40,310 bases of DNA, taken from IMG/VR virus record IMGVR_UViG_3300045988_159991, positions 1 to 40,310 of that record, one strand, 5' to 3'. Every line of letters starts with the position of its first letter. Position 1 is the stretch's first letter. Made by a program: the position numbers and the translations under genes. This stretch comes from a virus. Below the pieces are notes generated by a model. That model was not told where the DNA came from. It ran no database searches and saw only the letters and a list, made by a program, of their open reading frames with translations. Positions 3,119 to 40,202 of the stretch are shown here, in pieces.

Positions 3119-4013
3119 TTAGCCTCCAAGGTGATACTCGTGGGTCATTGACAGGCAGTCTTGGATATGGATTGATAACTCCATCTGACGTCTTCAAGCC
3201 ATATGTTGTTCTGTATCGCTCTACTAGCTCATCGTATAGTTGCTTATAATATCCTGCTGTCTGCAAATCTTTGCGCATCAGATAAAACTGTTGACAAGCA
3301 TAGTAAACGATAGCATCGTGATACTCTTCTGGAATATCGACGCTTTGTCCGATTGTAACAGTAGTATTATCTGAACTGTCACCTTCATAGTAGTTCTGTA
3401 GTAGCAGATGAGTATCGTCAAGTCGTCTATCTATTTTAATCGCTCGTTCATCTGGGAATATCATATAGCAGTTATCAGCCACATCAGATCTGAACTTGTC
3501 GCCACCCACAGCCTCGACAGCATCGCTATTAGCCTCTAGCTTAACCTTAACTGTGTAATCGTCGATATGTAATCTAGTCGCTTTAGCTTCATAAATGACT
3601 TTTAATCCATCAGTGACGTTGACTGCACTTGGTGGCAATAGCTCAATCTGGCGTGGTGTCTTGACAAAATAGTATGTCGGTTGTGAGGCTAAAGTTAGCC
3701 AGTTATGCTTTACAGCTAGATATTCGCTCGTGCTCTTTATCTCAATCAGCTCATTATCTCTAGCTGTCACAGCTGTTATTCTCAAAACGTCATCGCTCAG
3801 TTGATATGACGCCTGTTTAGCAATCAGATCGGTTGTTTTGGTTTTAGTTACAGGATATCGTCTAGCCAGAGAATTGACGAGCTGAGCACCTGAACAGATA
3901 TCTTTAGCTATTTTAACCAACTCATCTGAACTGTCATCTAAACCGCACAGCTGAGCTACTTCTGTTTTCATCTGAGTAAACGTCTTCATGTCTGTATTAT
4001 AACGTATTATCAT
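3111..4013 (-). CDS. Virion protein, first gene of the leftward late operon (adaptor / tail-tubular-A-like by position)
   Basis: 300-aa ORF. The ATG at 4013 lies inside the conserved 36-bp element and has no good SD. The internal ATG at 3989 is preceded by TATAAT-N6 (leaderless candidate), which would give 292 aa. Confidence 0.8.
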   Translation of the reverse strand: MIIRYNTDMKTFTQMKTEVAQLCGLDDSSDELVKIAKDICSGAQLVNSLARRYPVTKTKTTDLIAKQASYQLSDDVLRITAVTARDNELIEIKSTSEYLAVKHNWLTLASQPTYYFVKTPRQIELLPPSAVNVTDGLKVIYEAKATRLHIDDYTVKVKLEANSDAVEAVGGDKFRSDVADNCYMIFPDERAIKIDRRLDDTHLLLQNYYEGDSSDNTTVTIGQSVDIPEEYHDAIVYYACQQFYLMRKDLQTAGYYKQLYDELVERYRTTYGLKTSDGVINPYPRLPVNDPRVSPWRLNG

Positions 4014-4045
4014 GACGTCAACCTGATGATGTTATTACAATGATG
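4010..4045 (-). promoter_or_regulatory. 36-bp conserved late-operon element (inverted copy of 21705-21740)
   Basis: tcatgacgtcaacctgatgatgttattacaatgatg is the exact reverse complement of 21705-21740. It contains the TGACGTCA palindrome. Confidence 0.7.
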
Positions 4046-4061
4046 AATGTGGCTAAAATGC

Positions 4062-4119
4062 TTGACTTTCAATAAGCACTTTGCTATTATAATAGTGTCA
4101 AGTTAATAAGGAGGACAAC
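4062..4119 (+). promoter_or_regulatory. Early promoter-leader cassette P1
   Basis: TTGACT (4062-4067), then N14, TGc, TATTAT (4085-4090), then the conserved leader aatagtgtcaagttaataAGGAGGacaac and the ATG at 4120. It is nearly identical to the cassette at 7882. Confidence 0.8.
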
Positions 4120-4581
4120 ATGACAACTACAGCTATAGTTAAAGATATCGCTTTTCAAGAAGCACACGCCACGAACGTAACAGTTTCGTATTCAGCCGGC
4201 GAGTTTATTTTGCCAAAATGGTTTATCAACAAAAATCTTTCACAGAACCAAGCGTACGCAGTCAGCGTTGAAGGCTGTGGGAAAGCGGTCAAAGAGACAG
4301 AGAAAGCTGTTGATATCGAATTCACTACTGATTACGGAAAAGTCTGGCTTTGGTGTCCAAAGTCAATTCTCAAAACAATCGAAGAAGTTGCAGATGAGTT
4401 GATTGCGAGTGCGAAAAAGTTCAATGATAAGATGAATAAGCGTGCTGAGCTTATCGAGAAAATGAGGGCTTTGGGCGTCAAAGGCATCAGCAATCATCAG
4501 CGAACTGAGACAATTTTTAGCAAAGCTAAAGAGCAGGGTGTCGATGTTTCTGATATTGAAAAGTGGTATTTTGATAAATAA
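4120..4581 (+). CDS. Hypothetical early protein (153 aa)
   Basis: ORF directly behind P1 with a perfect AGGAGG. No motif recognised. Confidence 0.85.
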   Translation: MTTTAIVKDIAFQEAHATNVTVSYSAGEFILPKWFINKNLSQNQAYAVSVEGCGKAVKETEKAVDIEFTTDYGKVWLWCPKSILKTIEEVADELIASAKKFNDKMNKRAELIEKMRALGVKGISNHQRTETIFSKAKEQGVDVSDIEKWYFDK

Positions 4582-7770: not shown

Positions 7771-7878
7771 ATGACCGACGCTAGTGCTTATGACAGTATA
7801 GTAGCGCAGATCGCCCAGCAGGTCAATATGAGTTATCCACAGTTTATGTTTTTATTACATCGTTATTATAGTGCTTAA
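7771..7878 (+). CDS. Possible 35-aa ORF in the divergent control region
   Basis: gaggacaacATG mimics the cassette RBS. The product is MTDASAYDSIVAQIAQQVNMSYPQFMFLLHRYYSA. Its RBS and start lie in the loop of the 10-bp inverted repeat at 7735-7789. Confidence 0.3.
   Translation: MTDASAYDSIVAQIAQQVNMSYPQFMFLLHRYYSA
7827..7841 (+). promoter_or_regulatory. DnaA-box-like site (TATGAGTTATCCACA) upstream of P2
   Basis: A perfect TTATCCACA at 7833-7841. The same 15-mer occurs at 10247-10261. Both end exactly 40 bp before the -35 hexamer. Confidence 0.6.
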
Positions 7879-7881
7879 GTC

Positions 7882-7939
7882 TTGCTTTTCAATAAGCACT
7901 TTGCTACTATAATAGTGTCAAGTTAATAAGGAGGACAGC
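7882..7939 (+). promoter_or_regulatory. Early promoter-leader cassette P2
   Basis: TTGCTT, then N14, TGc, TACTAT, then aatagtgtcaagttaataAGGAGGacagc and the ATG at 7940. Confidence 0.75.
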
Positions 7940-8698
7940 ATGACAGAAGTAGTAGATATTAAGAAAGCTATCAGAAGCTATCTGAGCAGCAATATTAAGA
8001 AGCAGATGGCGATCGAGAATAGGATTATCGGTCATTATCTGGACAGAAATGCGTGCTATATCAGCGACGTAGCGATTATCAAATACTATTTAGCTGATGA
8101 TCCTGATGTAGAAGAGATTTGGCAACTTTTTGATATTAGAGATACAAAGCAGAATAGAGAAGAGTTTTATCAGATGCTACTCGATTGTCTTGACAAGCGA
8201 AGAATTGCTGTCAAAGTATGGCGCAAGCGTAACAACAGTAGTGCATTTATGAACGATTATGATGTTGAGCTTGGCGTCTTCTATCTGATGTATCAAGATC
8301 CAAGACATGCGCTATCAGACGAATACGCGATTGTTCGTAAAGAGATGGTCAAGAATGCTATGACTAAAGTTTTCTTTAGTCACAAGCTATATCAGACTAG
8401 ACAAGATATTCTTAAACGTGTCGAGAAAGTAGCTGTTGAGGATAAAGACTGGGATAAGAATCCCGGCATAAAAGCAACGGGTGAGTTGCAAGATATCTCT
8501 AAAGAGGTAGTTGATGCTGTATTGGACACGTTAAAGCTGACTATGCACGATATCATTTACGAAGCAGTCGGTTTAGGCTGGTTTGAAAGCAAAGACTCTC
8601 TTATAATTCGAGACATGAGCTGGGTAGCTTACGAGATTGTTGAGAAGTTGGCTATCGAGGCTAGGCTTGGCGCATCGGATTATCTGTACTACAGATAA
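7940..8698 (+). CDS. Hypothetical early protein (252 aa)
   Basis: ORF directly behind P2. No motif recognised. Confidence 0.85.
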   Translation: MTEVVDIKKAIRSYLSSNIKKQMAIENRIIGHYLDRNACYISDVAIIKYYLADDPDVEEIWQLFDIRDTKQNREEFYQMLLDCLDKRRIAVKVWRKRNNSSAFMNDYDVELGVFYLMYQDPRHALSDEYAIVRKEMVKNAMTKVFFSHKLYQTRQDILKRVEKVAVEDKDWDKNPGIKATGELQDISKEVVDAVLDTLKLTMHDIIYEAVGLGWFESKDSLIIRDMSWVAYEIVEKLAIEARLGASDYLYYR

Positions 8699-10261: not shown

Positions 10262-10301
10262 TTACGTTGTAAATAAAGTCATGATCGCATAAGTATACCG
10301 C

Positions 10302-10356
10302 TTGACATATTCAAAGCACTATGAGACAATAATAATGTCAAAGAAAGGAGGACAAC
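10302..10356 (+). promoter_or_regulatory. Early/middle promoter-leader cassette P3
   Basis: TTGACA, then N14, TGa, GACAAT, then aataatgtcaaagaaAGGAGGacaac and the ATG at 10357. Confidence 0.7.
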
Positions 10357-10599
10357 ATGAACGACGACAACGGTAACGAGATCAAGGGATTGGCAGTAGC
10401 CTATGATGGTTGCCATAAGATTTACATCTGTGAGACTGAGGCTGATATCGATCGGATGAAGAAGTTAAACTATCAGATCCACGATATGAGTGAGCTAGAG
10501 GATATCTACAACAGGTCTTGTAGTCTGAGGTTTATCAACAGCGCAGATCTGAAGAAGTGCTTTGTAGCACAAAGGTTAGATGACGACGATGAGTACTAA
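10357..10599 (+). CDS. Hypothetical acidic protein (80 aa)
   Basis: ORF directly behind P3 with AGGAGG. Confidence 0.85.
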   Translation: MNDDNGNEIKGLAVAYDGCHKIYICETEADIDRMKKLNYQIHDMSELEDIYNRSCSLRFINSADLKKCFVAQRLDDDDEY

Positions 10600-13382: not shown

Positions 13383-13391
13383 GCATACCAC

Positions 13392-13446
13392 TTGACTTTC
13401 TATAAGCACTATGAGATACTAATAGTGTCAAAGAAAGGAGGACAAC
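13392..13446 (+). promoter_or_regulatory. Early/middle promoter-leader cassette P4
   Basis: TTGACT, then N14, TGa, GATACT, then aatagtgtcaaagaaAGGAGGacaac and the ATG at 13447. Confidence 0.7.
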
Positions 13447-13617
13447 ATGAACGAAGCAAGCCAGCGTAAGTATCACTGGCGCAACGGTCGAGTGATAATT
13501 GAGCGAGAGATTATCGACGACCATAACGATAAAAGCATTGCGATAGGCTTAGGGATAGTACTTCTATTATTCTTACAACTAGCAATACATGCTTTTGGAG
13601 CATTACTCATAGGATAA
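13447..13617 (+). CDS. Small membrane protein (56 aa), absent from the ORF track
   Basis: Translated by hand: MNEASQRKYHWRNGRVIIEREIIDDHNDKSIAIGLGIVLLLFLQLAIHAFGALLIG. It occupies the same position behind the cassette RBS as the other three first genes. Confidence 0.75.
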   Translation: MNEASQRKYHWRNGRVIIEREIIDDHNDKSIAIGLGIVLLLFLQLAIHAFGALLIG

Positions 13618-17162: not shown

Positions 17163-17762
17163 ATGGCAAAGTATAGGTTGCTAAAGAATTGGCTTGGCGT
17201 CAAAGCCGGCACTATCTGCGAGACTAACGAGGATGGGTTTGCGGAACTAAAAGCTGACGATGGGTGTATTGTTGCGACCCTCAGTACTAAAGCCGATTGG
17301 TTTGGCGAGTATTTTGAGGAAGTAGGCGATGAATACAAGCGTTGGCGAGCCGACAGGGGCGGTGACTACTATTGCGTCGATAGTGATGGCTCACTGGCAA
17401 CGTATGGGGAATATAACGACAATACTGATAATAGCCTCTATAAAATAGGTAACTATTTTAAGACCGGAGAAGAAGCAAAGCGATGGCGAAACTACATGGT
17501 TGCCTTGCAGACTATCAAGGATGACGCCAAGGGTTTTGCGCCCGACTGGAGTGATAGAGGCGAGTGTAAACATTTTGTCGTGCACGACCACTGTAGCAGT
17601 GCTCTTACTACGGACTATACTAGCACGCTGAACTTCGGCGTTCCCGCCTGCTTTGCCACCGAAGACGACGCTAGAGCGTCTATTGAGAAGCATCGCAAAG
17701 AGTGGCTCACCGTGCTAGGCGTAAAGGGGGGGGGTGACAGCGATGATATGTGTAAGAAATGA
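17163..17762 (+). CDS. Hypothetical protein B2 (199 aa), paralogue of 14964..15557
   Basis: SD AAAGGAG. It has the shared blocks listed for B1. Its C-terminus is encoded partly by a G9 run. Confidence 0.85.
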   Translation: MAKYRLLKNWLGVKAGTICETNEDGFAELKADDGCIVATLSTKADWFGEYFEEVGDEYKRWRADRGGDYYCVDSDGSLATYGEYNDNTDNSLYKIGNYFKTGEEAKRWRNYMVALQTIKDDAKGFAPDWSDRGECKHFVVHDHCSSALTTDYTSTLNFGVPACFATEDDARASIEKHRKEWLTVLGVKGGGDSDDMCKK

Positions 17763-18783
17763 AGTTCCGAAAAAAGCAACCTTGGACGACTATGTCAAAA
17801 GAAACCTAGTCAAATGCCGTCGTGATGATGAGCGTGGCTTGAACGTTTACGTTTACACTGTTCACACCCAGATAAACCGCTTTTGGAATTACGCAACCTT
17901 AGCCGCTAGAGGAATTGTCTACGACGATAAAGGCAGACTTATTCAGCGTTGTTTGCCAAAGTTCTTTAACTATAACGAGCCCGACGGAATTGCCATGGCA
18001 GAACATTATAAAATTGTCCGCCCGACAATTCAGGAGAAACTAGACGGCTCACTGATAAAAGTGACCAACGACCAAGAGTATGGGCTAGTTGTTACCTCAA
18101 AAGGTAGCTTTGACAGTGAGCAGGTCAAGATGGCAAATAAGCTTTTGGAAGACAAGCGTAGACTATGGCAGTTCGAGCCTGGACTAACTTATCACTTTGA
18201 GCTTGTGTCACCTAAGAACAAGATAGTAGTTCCTTACAGGGACACCGAGCTTGTTCTGTTTTGTGTCATAAAAAACGACAGTGGCGTCGAATTAGACCTA
18301 AACGACCGACGGTTCATCAAGTTTACCAAGCCACTCACTTATGATGTTAGGGTTCTTGATGACGTCAACAGCCTCAATGCTCACGGCTTACATGAAGGCG
18401 TGGTAGCCAACTTTACTTATTATCGGTTGAAGTTCAAGACCGACGAGTACCTGAGATTGCACCGCCTCGTGACCGACTTGACGCCAAAAAGGGTTTGGGA
18501 AGCGTTGTCCATCGGGCAAGAGATAGACCGTCTTTGTGTGCCTGAAGAGTTTATCAACTGGCTGGATAGGACAGAGGAGCAGCTAAAGGGGAAATATCAC
18601 GATTTATCATCTGATGTCGCCATGGCTATCCTCTATTGTAGGGATATGACTAACAAGGAGGTAGCTACCTGCCCGAACCCATTTATTAGAAACCATAAGA
18701 GTTACGTTTTAGCTTATCGTTCAGGCAAAGACGTACCACAGATGATGTGGCAAGCTATTAAACCGAAAGGAGGAGTGAAATGA
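17743..18783 (+). CDS. rnlA: T4 Rnl1-type RNA ligase
   Basis: ARGIVYD, PKFFNYNE, IQEKLDGSLIKV (KxDGSL adenylylation motif), SKGSFDSEQVKMAN and HFELVSPKNKIVVPY parallel T4 Rnl1 (recalled from memory: CRGIMFE, EKFFNLNE, TKEDGSLV, SKGSIKSEQ, NFEFVAPTNRIVLAY). I use the ATG at 17743 after the G-rich SD. Confidence 0.85.
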   Translation: MICVRNEVPKKATLDDYVKRNLVKCRRDDERGLNVYVYTVHTQINRFWNYATLAARGIVYDDKGRLIQRCLPKFFNYNEPDGIAMAEHYKIVRPTIQEKLDGSLIKVTNDQEYGLVVTSKGSFDSEQVKMANKLLEDKRRLWQFEPGLTYHFELVSPKNKIVVPYRDTELVLFCVIKNDSGVELDLNDRRFIKFTKPLTYDVRVLDDVNSLNAHGLHEGVVANFTYYRLKFKTDEYLRLHRLVTDLTPKRVWEALSIGQEIDRLCVPEEFINWLDRTEEQLKGKYHDLSSDVAMAILYCRDMTNKEVATCPNPFIRNHKSYVLAYRSGKDVPQMMWQAIKPKGGVK

Positions 18784-19622
18784 AACTCTTACTACTAAAA
18801 GGCTTACCCGCCTCTGGTAAAACCACCTTTGCCAAGGAGCTTGTCAGAAATGACGGAAATTGGATACGGGTGAATAAAGATGATTTGCGCAACATGCTAA
18901 ATGGTGGTAAGTGGTCATCTGGGCGAGAAAGGAAAATAATTGTGTGTGAGCGAACGCTTGTCGAATTATCGCTAGACCAGAAAAAGAACGTAGTGGTGGA
19001 TGATACTAATCTGAACCCAACTCACGAGCGATATTTTAAGGGGTTAGCTGAAAGCCACAACGCCGACTTTGAGATAAAGGAGTTTGATACACCGCTAGAG
19101 GAATGTATTAAGCGTGACAATGCCCGCCCCAACGGCGTCGGTGAGACGGTGATACGGAGAATGTACAATCAGTATCTTAAGCCCGCACCTGCTAAATATA
19201 CGCCAGACCCCATGTTGCAGCCCGCTATCGTTTGCGATATCGATGGCACACTGGCGCACATGCACGACAGGTCGCCGTACGACTGGAGTAAGGTAGGCAA
19301 TGACATGGTAGATATACCCATTGCTTGGCTCACCAGCATCTTGTTTAGAAGCGTCAGCGTAATTCTGGTATCAGGCAGAGATGAGAGCTGTCACAAGGAA
19401 ACTCAAGATTGGCTAGCCAAGAACGGTATCTGTTACACCAAGTTGATTATGCGAAAGGAGGGAGATAATCGACCAGATGAGGTAGTCAAAGAGGAGATAT
19501 TTAACGAGAATATCAGAGGAAGCTATAACGTCAGATTTGTCTTGGATGACCGAAATAAGGTGGTCGACATGTGGCGTCAATTAGGATTAAAATGCTTACA
19601 AGTAGCGGAAGGAGATTTTTAA
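18780..19622 (+). CDS. pseT: Polynucleotide 5'-kinase / 3'-phosphatase (T4 Pnkp type)
   Basis: P-loop GLPASGKTT. DDTNLNP. HAD phosphatase motif VCDIDGTLA. VSGR. DEVVKEEIF. C-terminal LQVAEGDF matches T4 WQVASGDF (recalled from memory). ATGA overlap with the ligase gene. Confidence 0.9.
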   Translation: MKLLLLKGLPASGKTTFAKELVRNDGNWIRVNKDDLRNMLNGGKWSSGRERKIIVCERTLVELSLDQKKNVVVDDTNLNPTHERYFKGLAESHNADFEIKEFDTPLEECIKRDNARPNGVGETVIRRMYNQYLKPAPAKYTPDPMLQPAIVCDIDGTLAHMHDRSPYDWSKVGNDMVDIPIAWLTSILFRSVSVILVSGRDESCHKETQDWLAKNGICYTKLIMRKEGDNRPDEVVKEEIFNENIRGSYNVRFVLDDRNKVVDMWRQLGLKCLQVAEGDF

Positions 19623-21493: not shown

Positions 21494-21579
21494 AGAAAGA
21501 TTTATGGGACAGCATAGCTAACGTTATATTGATTGTCGGTTGGGTGATAATAACGATATTGATGATTGTCACCCGTTGA
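21490..21579 (+). CDS. Possible 29-aa membrane peptide
   Basis: ATGA overlap with the previous stop. MKKDLWDSIANVILIVGWVIITILMIVTR. Below the ORF-track cutoff. Confidence 0.4.
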   Translation: MKKDLWDSIANVILIVGWVIITILMIVTR

Positions 21580-21653
21580 CGTGATATGTAAGTATGGTAG
21601 ACTAGCTACATACAATCGTGAATGCATCAGCCGGCAGTAGTCACGGTTGGAAG

Positions 21654-21698
21654 CCCACATCAAAAGGTCTTGTGCCTGAGGTGTGGGTTTTTTGTTTT
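21654..21698 (+). terminator. Intrinsic terminator ending the early/middle operon
   Basis: Stem cccacatc / ggtgtggg (with inner agg/cct) followed by ttttttgtttt. Confidence 0.75.
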
Positions 21699-21704
21699 AC
21701 CACC

Positions 21705-21740
21705 CATCATTGTAATAACATCATCAGGTTGACGTCATGA
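21705..21740 (+). promoter_or_regulatory. 36-bp conserved late-operon element (copy 2)
   Basis: catcattgtaataacatcatcaggttgacgtcatga is the exact reverse complement of 4010-4045. It is followed by TATAAT (21743-21748), N6, then the ATG at 21755. Confidence 0.7.
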
Positions 21741-21754
21741 GGTATAATTAGTCT

Positions 21755-22234
21755 ATGAGCAAAAGGACAGACGGCAAGAGTGGTTTTGCAATCGGCGTCG
21801 GAAAACGCATGAATGGCACTTGGAAGAAAGAGCGAACGCCACGTGGACGATTAGAGATATTATTAAATGACGTTAGCTATGAGCAGTTGAAAGACTTGTT
21901 CAGACGATTAGACAATGACGAGTTTGACGGCACAGCTAGAGTTGGTGACGTTTTAGATATTGCCGTTTTGAAAGAGATTTTCGTCAGAAATGCGCCTGGC
22001 GAAAAGATAAAAGTCTCTAGCGACAAATTGTTAAAACTTTACGATTTTATTTATGGCAAGAAGTCTGAAAACAGTCTAAACGGCAAAATTGACGTCGATA
22101 TTGACGCCAAAATGACTAGCGTCAGAGGCTTTATATTGCCAGTATCAGGTCAAGACTTTATCGATGAAAAAGGGCGACAGATTGAGCAAGGTGACGTCAA
22201 GCCGTCTGAAGACGCTGGGAAACGACAAAGCTAA
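21755..22234 (+). CDS. Putative small terminase subunit (159 aa)
   Basis: The call is by position only, immediately upstream of and overlapping terL. Basic N-terminus. No SD (leaderless candidate). Confidence 0.5.
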   Translation: MSKRTDGKSGFAIGVGKRMNGTWKKERTPRGRLEILLNDVSYEQLKDLFRRLDNDEFDGTARVGDVLDIAVLKEIFVRNAPGEKIKVSSDKLLKLYDFIYGKKSENSLNGKIDVDIDAKMTSVRGFILPVSGQDFIDEKGRQIEQGDVKPSEDAGKRQS

Positions 22235-25997: not shown

Positions 25998-27293
25998 ATG
26001 AGCGTTTTAAGCAGTTTATTTAAGAGATTGCTCAAGGGTAGAGGCGATGATATCGCTGAAAAGGTAGCTCAGAATTATGGTGATGATGCTATTAGGATTG
26101 CTACTAACGGCATTAAGAACCATTTGGATGAGGGGCTTGACTCTGCCAGTAACCTGATAGCTACCCACCAGATATCGCCCGAAAAGTTAGCTCAGGCAAC
26201 CGAGATGGGTGGTTTTATGCACCCGTCTTTAGCTGTCACTGCCCCAGGACGAGGTGGTGGCACATTAAACCCCAGTTATGGCGATATTGTTATGGTGGCC
26301 AACCGCAACCAATTCTCACCGACCGCAGGCAAGTCTGTTATTGCCGACCGAGACATTTGGTCGCCGACCGTACCGGAGAGTATTGCCGAGGTTGACAAGA
26401 AGGCGCTAGATAGAATACTTAAGGCGAACGGAGCAAAGGAGTCTGCCTCTGACCTAATGAGGTCTGGCGGGCTTGACCTAAATAATCCAGAGAGTGGGCT
26501 AGCTAATTTATATCGTATTATTATGGGCGAATCAGATGCTTGGTTGCCTGATGTTATTAGGGCTGACGACTACAAAGCTTTTGCTAAAGACATTGCCGAT
26601 AAAATTACTAAAAGGCGCGTCTTTGACGTACAAGACGGTAAAGGCAACTGGGTAACTAAGCCGTACACGCCCGAAAATGTCGATAAATATATGAGCCAAG
26701 GCTCAGCTATCAATCGTGTGGGGTACGATAACCCATACAACGATATGATTATCAATCACAACCAACAGTTCAAGTCAACCACCCCGCTTTATAAACAAGC
26801 TAATCGGCTGATGAGCAAAGAACTATCCGAACCCTCTTACAATGCTATGATTGACGAATTTGAGCGCATAAAAGACCTGCTTGGCAGTAAGGATATACCT
26901 AGCGATTATGCCCCAAGCTATGCTTTGTCTGAAATGCTGGCAGGCAATCTACCCGTTACTAAAAGTATAAGACCGCAAGTAGATGAGTTCCGTACCGCCC
27001 TGAAGAATATCCCTGTGCCGTATTTTGAGGCTAAACTCAGACGTATCGAGCCAGGTAGTAACTTCTATGGAGCTTTAGTGCCTGATGATGTCTCTGGTGA
27101 GGTGATGGACAATCTGGCTAAACTAGGCGTCAATAATATCCAGCCATACAACGTTGATGAAGGTATTCAATCTTACCTTGGCAACATGGCTAAAAGAGGG
27201 CGACGGCTTGTCAATCCATACGTACTTGGACTAGGCGGAGCAGGCGTCTTATCCAGTTTGTTCAGTGGTCAAAACGGCTCAGATAACGTATAG
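25998..27293 (+). CDS. Head-associated / internal virion protein candidate (431 aa)
   Basis: SD AGGAGG. It follows the portal gene. The N-terminal motif LFKRLLKGRGDDIAEKVAQNYGDD is shared with the 609-aa protein on the other strand. Confidence 0.85.
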   Translation: MSVLSSLFKRLLKGRGDDIAEKVAQNYGDDAIRIATNGIKNHLDEGLDSASNLIATHQISPEKLAQATEMGGFMHPSLAVTAPGRGGGTLNPSYGDIVMVANRNQFSPTAGKSVIADRDIWSPTVPESIAEVDKKALDRILKANGAKESASDLMRSGGLDLNNPESGLANLYRIIMGESDAWLPDVIRADDYKAFAKDIADKITKRRVFDVQDGKGNWVTKPYTPENVDKYMSQGSAINRVGYDNPYNDMIINHNQQFKSTTPLYKQANRLMSKELSEPSYNAMIDEFERIKDLLGSKDIPSDYAPSYALSEMLAGNLPVTKSIRPQVDEFRTALKNIPVPYFEAKLRRIEPGSNFYGALVPDDVSGEVMDNLAKLGVNNIQPYNVDEGIQSYLGNMAKRGRRLVNPYVLGLGGAGVLSSLFSGQNGSDNV

Positions 27294-27346
27294 TGACATA
27301 AACAACATTTTAAGATAGACTAAAATTGTAATAAGAAAGGAGATAG

Positions 27347-31756: not shown

Positions 31757-32224
31757 ATGACAGACGGACAACGATACAGGTGGCAAGCTATCTTTAGTGA
31801 CGGTACACGGATAACTCAGCCGGACGACGACCATTATTCTAAGCATGACCCGACCAAAGAGCATAATCCGTCTGCCTTTAGGGACGTGGAGGATAAGCGT
31901 GAGAGTACACCTCTAGTAGCTTTTGTTTTAAGAGATATTGCCGATGATAGCCAAGCCGTTTTGTTAGACCTGGAAGCCCGTATCTTTTATGTCAACAACA
32001 TGCCACTTAAGTTAGCAGGTGATGAACAATTTATTTATGACATTAACTGTAAGCCTGCCGACCTCATCTACTACCGCACCATGGAGCAGAAGATGGAAGA
32101 CGGCTCAAGACCGATAGTCAAGAGCCACACTATCGGCTACAGATACAACAACGTGTCATACGTGATTGTCATACCTGATGCGCCATATTTAGAAGTTATA
32201 GAGGGAGAGCAGAAGAATGAGTGA
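31757..32224 (+). CDS. Hypothetical accessory protein (155 aa)
   Basis: The ATG at 31757 lies next to the GTG at 31754. It shares an N-terminal motif with 30778..31236. Confidence 0.75.
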   Translation: MTDGQRYRWQAIFSDGTRITQPDDDHYSKHDPTKEHNPSAFRDVEDKRESTPLVAFVLRDIADDSQAVLLDLEARIFYVNNMPLKLAGDEQFIYDINCKPADLIYYRTMEQKMEDGSRPIVKSHTIGYRYNNVSYVIVIPDAPYLEVIEGEQKNE

Positions 32225-32271
32225 ATATCGACAGGCTGGCTATCTGGATGGTGTAATAATTACAAAATAGC

Positions 32272-32300
32272 TTGTAGTTAGCTACCTAGCTTGGTACTAT
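32272..32300 (+). promoter_or_regulatory. Candidate sigma70 promoter with an extended -10
   Basis: TTGTAG (32272-32277), then N14, TGg, TACTAT (32295-32300). This is the same -10 hexamer as P2. Confidence 0.4.
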
Positions 32301-32306
32301 ATCGGT

Positions 32307-32510
32307 GTAGCATATTGGGTTTTTGGTTGATTTTACTAGTATGCTTTGTACTTTCACCACACACAATCTTTTCTCGTAAACAGGTTTTCTCTTAATCTTT
32401 TCCTGTTTGCGGGTCATTACCTGTCGTGAGAGTGGTTTTTTGGCTAGTTTATCCCACTCTTACGATGCATATTGTGAAGACGCTCCACCTCACCCGGGGC
32501 GTCTTTTTTG
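32307..32510 (+). ncRNA. Candidate ~200-nt non-coding RNA or structured leader (promoter to terminator, no ORF)
   Basis: No ORF longer than 12 codons in this stretch. Internal stems: gtaaacagg/cctgtttgc (32377-32410) and agagtgg/ccactct (32430-32459). It ends in a strong intrinsic terminator. Confidence 0.4.
32476..32510 (+). terminator. Strong intrinsic terminator
   Basis: A stem of about 11 bp (gaagacgctcc / ggggcgtcttt) with a 9-nt loop, followed by ttttttgttt. Confidence 0.8.
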
Positions 32511-32533
32511 TTTACTGGTAAGATAGTAACAAG

Positions 32534-33727
32534 ATGAATGAATATTTTACTGATTTTTCTAATGAGCCACCGGGCAATATCCCCAGGGATAACCCTAACT
32601 GGATAGTTGACCAGAACCCAGGTAACTACATCGCTTTTACACCTGACCAGCATGGCTGTATCTGGATTAAGGCAGACAATAAGGGGCAAGTCTTTATCCG
32701 TTGTCGGCAATATGAGCCTGGCGCATCAGTTGTTGAGTCACTTACCAGGGTTATCGTCTGGACTAGCAATCAAAATATAGGTAGTTATGGTATTTTAGGA
32801 CACCGCTATAATAGGTCAGCCCCACAAGGTTTGACGCTAGGCTATATTCCCAGCTATGGACGATTGTCGCTGTTTCTATATGACGACACCCGGAATGAGG
32901 GGATAGCTTATCACTGGTATGACTGGTTACTAAACACACCTTATTGGGTGAGGTTTAGGTCAGATAATAATCGCCAGTACGCTAAGATATGGCGTGACGG
33001 CGAGGCTGAACCGGCCAACTGGCAGATAGATGCTGTACGTAGGTTCGGTGATAATAGTGGTGAGATAGGCTTAGTCAATTACACAGGTAGACCGGGTGAA
33101 GTAAGTGTGGCCTATACCCAGTACTCGTTCGCTACAGGCGGTGCTAGTGCACCTAGGTCACAAAACGCCATTGCCATCCAGGGCTCAGCTAGGATAGAAC
33201 GGGCTAATATTGATGTAATTAGGGGTAGGGCGGTCATAAATAAGAACATGTCTACCCAGCTATCTGGTAGGGCAGATATTCTTAAGTCGGTCGCCGCATC
33301 GATTGTCGGCAAGTCTAAGGTCGTCACGGGCGTAAACAAAGATATTCAACTTAGAGGCAAGGCTAGACTGAATAAGTATCAGACTAAGCAGATTAGCGGT
33401 AAGTCGGTTGTCAGCGTCTTTATTAAGCAGGCGTTTATCAAGGGCAGGACTAGGATACATATCCAACCGTCTCTCATACTGCTTGGAAGTGCCGTCGTTG
33501 CTAATGAAGCGACTACTACGATAAAGGGTGCATCTCGGATATATGGCGTATTCACAGCGTCTCTAAAGGGCAAGTCTGTTTTAAGACGACCACCACGACC
33601 AATGACACCACAGCACTGGCGCAACGCTGATACGCACTCACCTACCAAATGGCAAGGTGTAACCACCAAACCACAGCACTGGCGCAACGCTGATACGCAC
33701 TCACCGACCAAGTGGCAAGAACAATAA
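32534..33727 (+). CDS. Repeat-rich protein (397 aa): ConA/LamG-like N-domain (guess), ten ~14-aa xIxGxAxI repeats, duplicated Trp-containing C-terminal peptide
   Basis: Long ORF without an SD, bracketed by terminators. TGgTAAGAT lies 9 nt upstream of the ATG. Confidence 0.8.
   Translation: MNEYFTDFSNEPPGNIPRDNPNWIVDQNPGNYIAFTPDQHGCIWIKADNKGQVFIRCRQYEPGASVVESLTRVIVWTSNQNIGSYGILGHRYNRSAPQGLTLGYIPSYGRLSLFLYDDTRNEGIAYHWYDWLLNTPYWVRFRSDNNRQYAKIWRDGEAEPANWQIDAVRRFGDNSGEIGLVNYTGRPGEVSVAYTQYSFATGGASAPRSQNAIAIQGSARIERANIDVIRGRAVINKNMSTQLSGRADILKSVAASIVGKSKVVTGVNKDIQLRGKARLNKYQTKQISGKSVVSVFIKQAFIKGRTRIHIQPSLILLGSAVVANEATTTIKGASRIYGVFTASLKGKSVLRRPPRPMTPQHWRNADTHSPTKWQGVTTKPQHWRNADTHSPTKWQEQ
33607..33719 (+). 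repeat. Two 50-bp direct repeats with 63-bp period inside the CDS
   Basis: 33607-33656 and 33670-33719 differ at 2 positions, both synonymous (CCT/CCG, AAA/AAG). Each encodes PQHWRNADTHSPTKWQ. Confidence 0.9.
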
Positions 33728-33755
33728 AAAGCCACCCCGTAAGAGGTGGCTTTTT
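33726..33755. terminator. Bidirectional intrinsic terminator between convergent genes
   Basis: aaaaagccacc-ccgtaaga-ggtggcttttt. An A-tract lies on one side and a T-tract on the other. Confidence 0.85.
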
Positions 33756-33772
33756 AGTTGCGGCTGGGCGTA

Positions 33773-39409: not shown

Positions 39410-39416
39410 AGTCTTA

Positions 39417-40202
39417 TTATAAATGGTAAGGGGTAATTAGCGTCGTGATATCAAAAGTGATACCAGTTAGCCACCACCAGCTCCACCATTGTGAGGTAAA
39501 CCACCATTGACCGCCAGCCGACCTATTACCCCACGCCCACGCCACAGTAGAGTAGATATCGATATCGCCATTATCTCTTGGCTCGATAGAAAAACCACAA
39601 TGGATACTCGGGTCAGTCATCATCGACATGGTCGGCTGTGAGCCGTTGATATAACCCCTAGTCGGATAATTACCACTTGGTGAAAATGCCCAGACAAATA
39701 GTTCGTTAGTCGCACCGACAGATGTCACGTTTTCTGTAATATTGAAGTTAGAGTAGGCAAAGATAGCGTCGGTGCTGTTAGCTGGAAAATAGACATCAAA
39801 GTTGCCATCACCATCATACTGCCACCAAGCCTCATGGATAGTTGACCTGAGGTTACCGTTGCCAATCTCGCTATGAGCTAGATTGATTATTCTAAGTTGT
39901 CCTTTAGGTATACCAGTCCTAATGGTATGAACATGCTTTTTGTGCATACCTTGACCTGACCTGAAGACGTTATCCCAAGTAAATGGATTGGGTGTAACTG
40001 GTGGTTCTGGGGCATCACCTAGTACAGTGAACTTATACGTTCTAATCTGAGGTGTTTTACGTGATATATCCGTCCCAATCAGCTTGTAGGCACTGTTCAG
40101 ATAGACGACGTTATCGTCATAAGGTGATAGTACTTTTAGCCCATAATCTGCTCTTGGTACAATGCCGCCATCTTTGGGCGGTAGTTCATACTCGTCAATC
40201 AT
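39417..40202 (-). CDS. Tail-associated protein (261 aa) with an extreme Trp cluster near the C-terminus
   Basis: SD GGTGG. ATGA overlap with the junction-spanning gene. QWWFTSQWWSWWW is encoded at 39471-39509. Confidence 0.85.
   Translation of the reverse strand: MIDEYELPPKDGGIVPRADYGLKVLSPYDDNVVYLNSAYKLIGTDISRKTPQIRTYKFTVLGDAPEPPVTPNPFTWDNVFRSGQGMHKKHVHTIRTGIPKGQLRIINLAHSEIGNGNLRSTIHEAWWQYDGDGNFDVYFPANSTDAIFAYSNFNITENVTSVGATNELFVWAFSPSGNYPTRGYINGSQPTMSMMTDPSIHCGFSIEPRDNGDIDIYSTVAWAWGNRSAGGQWWFTSQWWSWWWLTGITFDITTLITPYHL

Follow-up and report, generated by a model that had tools for sequence, protein, structure and literature searches.

Between the last gene of its lysis block and a gene for a 397-aa protein, the phage genome analysed here (a stretch of 40,310 nt, referred to as the window) carries a unit at positions 32272–32510 that raises the question of whether it encodes an RNA acting on its own, a leader governing the gene behind it, or simply the tail of the operon in front of it. 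Our sequence comparisons indicate that the unit is a conserved promoter followed by three hairpins and a terminator, and that it is an RNA family absent from Rfam. We favour, with a probability of roughly 55 %, the reading that it is an independent phage sRNA gene of ~200 nt extending from the promoter (P1) to the terminator (T), a new sequence family found so far in one clade of oral phages. The functions of P1, of T and of a further promoter downstream (P2) are predicted, as are the ends of the RNA, and we infer an action in trans.

The window is a circular assembly, its terminal 55 nt being identical to its first 55 nt (40,255 unique bp), and has a G+C content of ~45 %. It encodes tailed-phage proteins (SU10-type portal and adaptor, large terminase and major head protein) together with an Amidase_2+SH3_5 endolysin, a Dp-1-type holin, RecT/YqaJ and a GroEL-like chaperonin; a 431-aa protein encoded beside the portal gene (25998–27293) has a PBECR5 nuclease domain (Barnase/EndoU/colicin-like). 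Adjacent genes at 17734–19622 encode a T4 Rnl1-like RNA ligase and a polynucleotide kinase-phosphatase (PNKP), an RNA (tRNA) repair pair which implies an anticodon-nuclease-type host defence; the phage itself is without tRNA genes, neither tRNA nor tmRNA genes having been found in the window. We consider the phage to be lytic and SU10-like, with a genome of ~40 kb, and its host to belong probably to the Saccharibacteria, an assignment that derives from a single similarity, namely that of the major head protein to its counterpart in TM7 phage DolZOral124_53_65 (65 % identity). Related contigs stem from human oral metagenomes. The capsid gene and protein and the RNA gave no match in 185,579 reference genomes. 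Similarly, blastn and tblastn searches of the locus against 50,697 phage records left the RNA and the 397-aa protein unmatched, the sole match from the region being that of the capsid gene to TM7 phage DolZOral124. To our knowledge, Saccharibacteria/CPR phages are known almost solely from metagenomes, and we know of no report on their gene regulation.

The lysis block runs in the order endolysin, holin and three small genes, with its final stop at 32224. The preliminary description held that the region beyond this stop contains no ORF longer than 12 codons, which is an overstatement: ORFs of 31–39 aa (TTG or GTG starts, + strand), 43 aa (ATG start, − strand) and 17 aa (32217–32270) exist, none of them conserved. 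The 17-codon ORF has a good Shine–Dalgarno (SD) sequence, overlaps the stop of the 156-aa gene and is a remnant of a ~60-nt duplication at the 3′ end of that gene (YLEVI... / YLDGVIITK); it is missing from the relatives L007, L010 and L147, and a TAG at 32268–32270 terminates the upstream gene in two of these (L007 and L147). We also considered an insertion scar, given the likeness of ATGAGTGAATAT (32217) to ATGAATGAATAT (32534), and rejected it, since the duplication remnant just described accounts for this likeness.

Homologues of the 397-aa protein led to 16 distinct versions of the element, ten from IMG/VR, five from ENA/Logan contigs and that of the window itself. All 16 are syntenic and belong to one phage clade in which the neighbouring protein is at least 77 % identical; since the homologues are syntenic and so closely related, the RNA is never seen uncoupled from the 397-aa gene, and its covariation derives from few independent events. 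Further copies were sought in several ways. A 15-mer scan of IMG/VR gave matches mostly at chance level, nhmmer over the loci assembled by then returned the same clade only, pattern scans recovered the same four contigs in metagenomes and none in reference genomes, and the covariance model R1, run on the rest of the window, the TM7 phage and two distant relatives (L024 and L025), detected no further copy.

The sequence of the predicted promoter P1 (TTGTAG-N14-TGg-TACTAT, 32272–32300, + strand), which had been proposed from the window alone, is present, and its consensus positions are invariant in the 16 homologues. It comprises a −35 element TTGTAG (32272–32277), a 17-nt spacer with a terminal TGG (32292–32294) and a −10 element TACTAT (32295–32300), with transcription predicted to start near G32307. 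Among the homologues AGCTTG, TTGnTAnnAT and the downstream GGTGTAGC do not vary, and the changes fall in the remaining −35 positions, the spacer, −10 positions 3–4 and the discriminator. P1 therefore carries the marks of a sigma-70 extended −10 promoter (a −35 TTG, a spacer of ~17 nt, TGn and a −10 TAnnnT, with selection at these positions), and its substitution pattern is what would be expected if this promoter were a working one. That a consensus scanner missed both P1 and T is due solely to the limits of that scanner, which accepts promoters from 9/12 matching hexamer positions upwards and terminator loops of up to 8 nt. The pattern TTGNNN-N13–15-TGNTANNNT is matched five times on the + strand, in four cases (4062, 7882, 21576 and 32272) within intergenic DNA ahead of + strand units, and P1 thus shares its format with further intergenic promoters of the phage. 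Two of these promoters (4062 and 7882) are part of an early promoter/operator module present in four genomic copies (4061–4125, 7881–7945, 10301–10365 and 13391–13455), which reads CTTGAC...TGnTAnTAT...GTCAAG followed by AAGGAGGACAAC and ATG; its palindromic CTTGAC/GTCAAG arms suggest a common repressor site.

The RNA that would run from the predicted start to the end of T (32307–32510) folds at −64.3 kcal/mol, with z = −5.7 for the + strand against −3.4 for the − strand when compared with dinucleotide shuffles. Hairpin H1 (32309–32345, + strand; arms 32309–32318/32336–32345) begins 2 nt from the predicted 5′ end, is found in both the MFE and the centroid structure and encloses a 17-nt U/G-rich loop (GGUUUUUGGUUGAUUUUA). 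It had been overlooked in the preliminary description, the two stems of which were nonetheless both found: these are H2 (32373–32413, + strand; arms 32373–32384/32402–32413), with a 17-nt pyrimidine-rich loop whose sequence varies freely and is unconserved in divergent members, and H3 (32423–32466, + strand; arms 32423–32435/32454–32466), with an 18-nt loop (GUUUUUUGGCUAGUUUAU) like that of H1. The U/G-rich loop motif common to H1 and H3 is lost from each of them in some homologues, at least one copy being kept in every one. H1 and H2 are separated by an unpaired linker (32346–32372, + strand; UUUGUACUUUCACCACACACAAUCUUU) in which almost every column is invariant in the 16 sequences, and this CA-rich segment is our best candidate for a seed or a protein-binding segment.

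Some smaller features of the RNA deserve mention. The direct repeat GCATATTG reported earlier is present, but its coordinates had been given one base off (the copies lie at 32310–32317 and 32467–32474) and an 8-mer is insignificant alone. A helix P0 (GGUG 32304–32307 with CACC 32356–32359) shows no variation and falls at the predicted start or ahead of it, and we do not claim it. A boxA-like CACUCUUA in H3 was likewise set aside; it lies inside the stem and is unconserved in L023.

Covariation across related phages, which had been named as a check on the RNA, was looked at in two alignments, and in both of them changes on both sides of a pair lie above those in shuffles. In the model-guided alignment A6 (16 sequences), which was fitted to the model and so leans towards it, 98.4 % of pair cells are standard pairs and 11 of the 47 pairs have changes in both partners, where shuffles give 4.9 ± 1.4 (0/500) and slid controls 0–3; with 11 sequences aligned by plain MAFFT, standard pairs make up 98.3 % of the pair cells and 5 pairs have changes in both partners, where shuffles give 2.1 ± 1.1 (3/500). 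A direct reading of the sequences matches these counts, four helices (H1, H2, H3 and T) being kept via compensatory changes. H1 has 99.4 % of its cells paired and two pairs changed on both sides (A-U to G-C via G·U, with both intermediates seen). H2 has such changes in 6 of its 12 pairs (e.g. ACAGG/CCUGU to GCGGG/CCCGC), and its stem is built from at least three unrelated sequences among the homologues, that of L147 being wholly different; in H3, which is 98 % paired, U-A to C-G and G·U to G-C changes are found in L023 and L145. Since G·U pairs are numerous (97 of 739 pair cells, 13 %) and would be mismatches if read on the other strand, it is the + strand RNA, and not the DNA, that forms the structure.

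As had been claimed, T (32477–32510, + strand) is among the strongest terminators of the genome: a 10-bp stem (arms 32477–32486/32496–32505) with a 9-nt loop that contains CUCACC, at −18.2 kcal/mol, and a U6 tract at 32504–32509. It presents the G+C-rich hairpin directly followed by a U tract that is characteristic of Rho-independent terminators, termination itself being predicted, and its stem has undergone compensatory changes (C-G to U-A and G-C to A-U) with the U tract kept in 16/16. The loop CUCACC is kept in 15/16 homologues despite the variation of the stem, and is complementary to GUGAG of the H3 5′ arm.

The U tract of T is separated by 24 nt from the ATG (32534) of the 397-aa gene (32534–33727, + strand); this distance and the lack of an SD, both noted before, are confirmed. 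The gene, which we treat as a neighbour of the RNA unit, and the major head gene are convergent and meet at a bidirectional terminator (33725–33756). The 397-aa product is unmatched in Pfam, in the PDB (also when PDB sequences were searched with a profile) and in phage databases, and its N-terminal half is all-beta; an AlphaFold2 model is mostly beta and is unusable for a fold search because its pLDDT is 43. In distant relatives the homologues of this gene precede the SU10-type adaptor gene, and the protein is probably virion-associated. The 3′ end of the gene contains a tandem 50-nt duplication (33607–33719; 96 % identical, 63 nt apart) that encodes a repeated C-terminal peptide PQHWRNADTHSP.KW.

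Nearly all genes of the window have AAGGAGG 5–9 nt ahead of the start codon, and the 397-aa gene, in contrast, is preceded by a candidate promoter, P2 (32516–32533, + strand), with TGg-TAAGAT at 32516–32524, 9 nt before the ATG; GATAGT (32522–32527), 6 nt before the ATG, is an alternative −10, and there is no −35 element. All 16 homologues have TGnTAAnAT at an unchanged distance from the ATG (in L145 as TGcTAAAAT), and the stretch between T and P2 tolerates the loss of 4 nt in L145 and L023. A −10 element ~6–10 nt before the start codon together with a missing SD is what distinguishes leaderless mRNAs, and the 397-aa gene has both, its transcription start being predicted. P2 thus appears to drive the 397-aa gene and would yield a near-leaderless mRNA with a 0–3 nt leader; such an mRNA from its own promoter would explain why the gene lacks an SD, and would require no read-through of T. 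We know of no documented case of leaderless translation in this host group. In the L025 clade, whose homologue of the 397-aa protein is 31 % identical, the RNA is absent at the locus, which there consists of a non-coding region, a terminator, TACAAT, 11 nt and an ATG, the gene heading a structural operon. The non-coding region of that clade (L025 2756–3000, also in L153, L154 and L155) is a different one of 245 nt, 92 % conserved within the clade, and may encode an analogous RNA that is unrelated to the one described here (z = −2.0).

Two other genes of the window, terS (21755) and a 275-aa gene (39409, − strand), also have no SD, and in each of them a perfect TATAAT precedes the ATG by exactly 6 nt (regions 21743–21757 and 39410–39424 on the − strand); their mRNAs may be leaderless, the alternative for terS being coupling to a mini-ORF. 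The terS gene lies beside one copy of a perfect 36-nt inverted repeat (4010–4045 and 21705–21740) that flanks a 17.6-kb early/replication segment. On one side the repeat comes with TTGTAATAAC and the adaptor start codon, and on the other with a 4-codon mini-ORF 3 nt before the terS ATG. In contig IMGVR 3300045988_144796 (L162, L168) terS and the adaptor gene have exchanged their upstream sequences as compared with the window and four other relatives; therefore the segment is inverted there, and both orientations occur among close relatives. Many related contigs break at the 36-nt repeat, and several of 23–25 kb end there. Since the repeat carries TTGTAATAAC and the adaptor start codon, it probably holds a late promoter and leader that would be shared by two late operons, and the segment is probably an invertible one. 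Another candidate late-promoter element is TGTAATAA, which occurs 7 times in the genome against 2 expected; five copies (4032–4039 and 7852–7859 on the − strand; 21711–21718, 27327–27334 and 32252–32259 on the + strand) are intergenic and directed at morphogenesis-type genes or the RNA unit, and the copy at 32252 is unconserved in 5/16 relatives.

Considering the choice left by the preliminary description between a stand-alone RNA and an attenuator-type leader, we favour the stand-alone RNA because P2 is conserved at a fixed 9 nt from the ATG of the 397-aa gene, because no conserved antiterminator pairing of the kind needed by an attenuator was found, and because the distant clade keeps the order of terminator, −10 and ATG without the RNA. 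A cis-acting leader, in which P1 would drive the 397-aa gene with T as a regulated attenuator, is in our judgement unlikely, though it has a good deal of the layout on its side: promoter, structured RNA, terminator and a gene 24 nt further on form a classical attenuator or PR′–tR′ arrangement, the 5′ end of the gene and the spacer from T to the ATG are unusually conserved (97 % in 32501–32550), and the conserved T loop is, as read from the sequences, complementary to H3. Read-through of T could in principle be brought about by an HK022 put-like RNA antiterminator, by a phage protein of the Q/N type or by an alternative fold. However, when T is forbidden its 5′ arm pairs differently among the homologues, with no conserved sequestering pairing, and a long-range helix (32362–32367/32471–32476, CACAAU/AUUGUG) together with the second GCAUAUUG copy is broken by substitutions in several homologues; moreover, Pfam and PHROG scans of ~50 ORFs, which cover known families only, revealed no Q, N, sigma or antiterminator family. 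A 230-nt leader without an SD would also be poorly translated in a genome where AAGGAGG is the rule, and the conserved −10 right before the ATG offers a simpler route of expression. The leader might further be argued from a second promoter-then-terminator unit ahead of terS (21576–21693; TTGACG-N14-TGgTAGACT, ~80 nt, a hairpin of −18.8 kcal/mol with U6), but this unit, with the inverted repeat and terS directly behind it, forms the end of the invertible early segment and is no dedicated leader.

We rate lower still the proposal that the element is only the 3′ UTR and terminator of the lysis operon, with P1 unused and the hairpins serving as exonuclease protection or processing sites. The preliminary description had named a late-operon 3′ UTR as the case that would overturn its reading, and one part of that case stands: since there is no terminator between the stop of the upstream gene (32224; 32270 in L007 and L147) and T, transcripts of the lysis operon must run through the element and end at T, and the element therefore doubles as a 3′ UTR. 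Stable hairpins ahead of terminators are, besides, common in 3′ UTRs. What this proposal leaves unexplained is the conservation of P1, where the substitutions spare exactly TTG, TGn and TAnnAT, a pattern unexpected for a passive 3′ UTR; a near-invariant unpaired linker is needless for stabilizing hairpins, and the distant clade has a different sequence at the locus.

It is very improbable that the unit is a DNA-level element (inverted repeats for protein binding or recombination) or encodes a small protein (a hydrophobic + strand peptide LGFWLILLVCFVLS..., type I toxin-like, or a basic 43-aa product of the − strand): there are indeed three inverted repeats of 10–13 bp with arms 17–18 bp apart, a near-palindrome centred on AGCT within the P1 spacer, and ORFs of 26–43 aa, but the many G·U cells would be mismatches in cruciforms or symmetric operators and the + strand folds much better than the − strand, and the small-ORF or type I toxin idea is contradicted by lost starts (the TTG of the + strand ORF is TTA in most homologues), by frame shifts at the CUUUUCUC indel, by substitutions that are mostly non-synonymous yet preserve pairing, and by a − strand ORF that is shortened to 20 aa or absent in 9/16 homologues.

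With regard to known RNA families, the search of the whole window against Rfam 15 gave no match at gathering scores, and a permissive search (E ≤ 10) likewise gave none, the best hit in 32150–32600 being IsrR, on the opposite strand and with 19 bits against a threshold of 52; riboswitches, T-box, pRNA, c4, 6S, Y RNA and HEARO are among the families left unmatched. The earlier remark that no known riboswitch motif is recognizable is in agreement with this result at both thresholds, and the Rfam check that had been advised accordingly leaves a sequence family that is not catalogued there. Among better-studied phage and prophage RNAs, lambda OOP, P22 sar, P1/P7 c4 and DicF are stand-alone sRNAs that have their own promoter and terminator and whose antisense partners or known targets lie in the phage or the host. 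The unit described here resembles them in being a short non-coding transcript that host RNA polymerase would make from a phage genome, with a 5′ hairpin, a 3′ Rho-independent terminator and a conserved unpaired segment; it differs in that no complementary phage target is found and in that most of them are smaller than this RNA of ~200 nt with its three long-loop hairpins. HK022 put RNA consists of two specific stem-loops in ~70 nt, and its processive antitermination has been demonstrated. Promoter-proximal stem-loops ahead of a terminator on one transcript are common to put and to our unit, but our unit numbers three hairpins, whose loops vary, read-through of its terminator is conjectural, and the gene behind it is probably served by a promoter of its own.

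ToxIN-like loci have a comparable order of promoter, non-coding RNA, terminator and a protein gene reached by read-through; the downstream protein here, in contrast, has 397 aa, is mostly beta according to a low-confidence model and has no toxin-family match. A type III toxin–antitoxin system was rejected on the side of the RNA as well: there is no ToxI-like tandem array of ~34–36 nt, only the H1 and H3 loops, 117 nt apart, being alike, and Tandem Repeats Finder detected none in 32200–32560. In layout the unit also resembles the lambdoid PR′–tR′ region (lambda 6S RNA, StxS), where a constitutive-type promoter, a transcript of ~70–200 nt and a strong terminator are followed by a late-region gene, and the succession of promoter, short terminated RNA and late gene is indeed found at 32272–32534. 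In Stx phages the short PR′–tR′ transcript StxS is itself a functional trans-acting sRNA (PMC7547250). The differences are that no Q antiterminator gene is recognized in the window, that the host is non-enterobacterial, that the downstream DNA holds one SD-less gene with its own −10 and no long late operon, and that the two units have no sequence or Rfam similarity.

In the stand-alone sRNA reading, host RNA polymerase of the sigma-70 type would start at P1 near 32307 and produce a transcript of ~200 nt that folds into H1, H2 and H3 consecutively, with conserved unpaired linkers between them, and ends at T. The terminator would then have a triple role, ending the sRNA, ending read-through from the lysis operon and insulating the next gene, while the 397-aa gene would be transcribed from its own extended −10 promoter P2 and translated off its near-leaderless mRNA. 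The features expected of a trans-acting sRNA gene, i.e. a promoter of the P1 type, a terminator, lack of coding capacity and a conserved unpaired segment, are all found here as predicted signals. The sRNA would act in trans through the CA-rich linker and/or the U/G-rich loop motif. With respect to its partner, duplexes between segments of the RNA and 52 phage translation-initiation regions were no better than those formed by shuffled segments, exact complementary k-mers elsewhere in the phage genome were limited to chance-level 11–12-mers, and whole-RNA duplexfold against the phage was uninformative; since no phage target was found, we suggest that the partner may be a host RNA or an RNA-binding protein. 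A bolder proposal, which we regard as rather doubtful, is that this is the first regulatory or anti-defence RNA described for a phage of the ultrasmall CPR bacteria (Saccharibacteria), that it is produced early from a host-type promoter, and that its duplicated loop motif and its linker might sequester an RNA-binding protein of the host, or else an RNA that serves defence or regulation, the RNA serving as a decoy or sponge and not as an antisense molecule.

Finally, the locus offers a compact transcription map, in which an extended −10 promoter of host type and a conserved, structured RNA are followed by a strong terminator and by a gene of late type that is probably leaderless. Were the RNA merely a leader or a 3′ UTR, it would be an ordinary one. 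The family could join Rfam once more divergent members turn up, and, if the RNA acts on the host, it would provide a first handle on post-transcriptional control or counter-defence in an episymbiont system.
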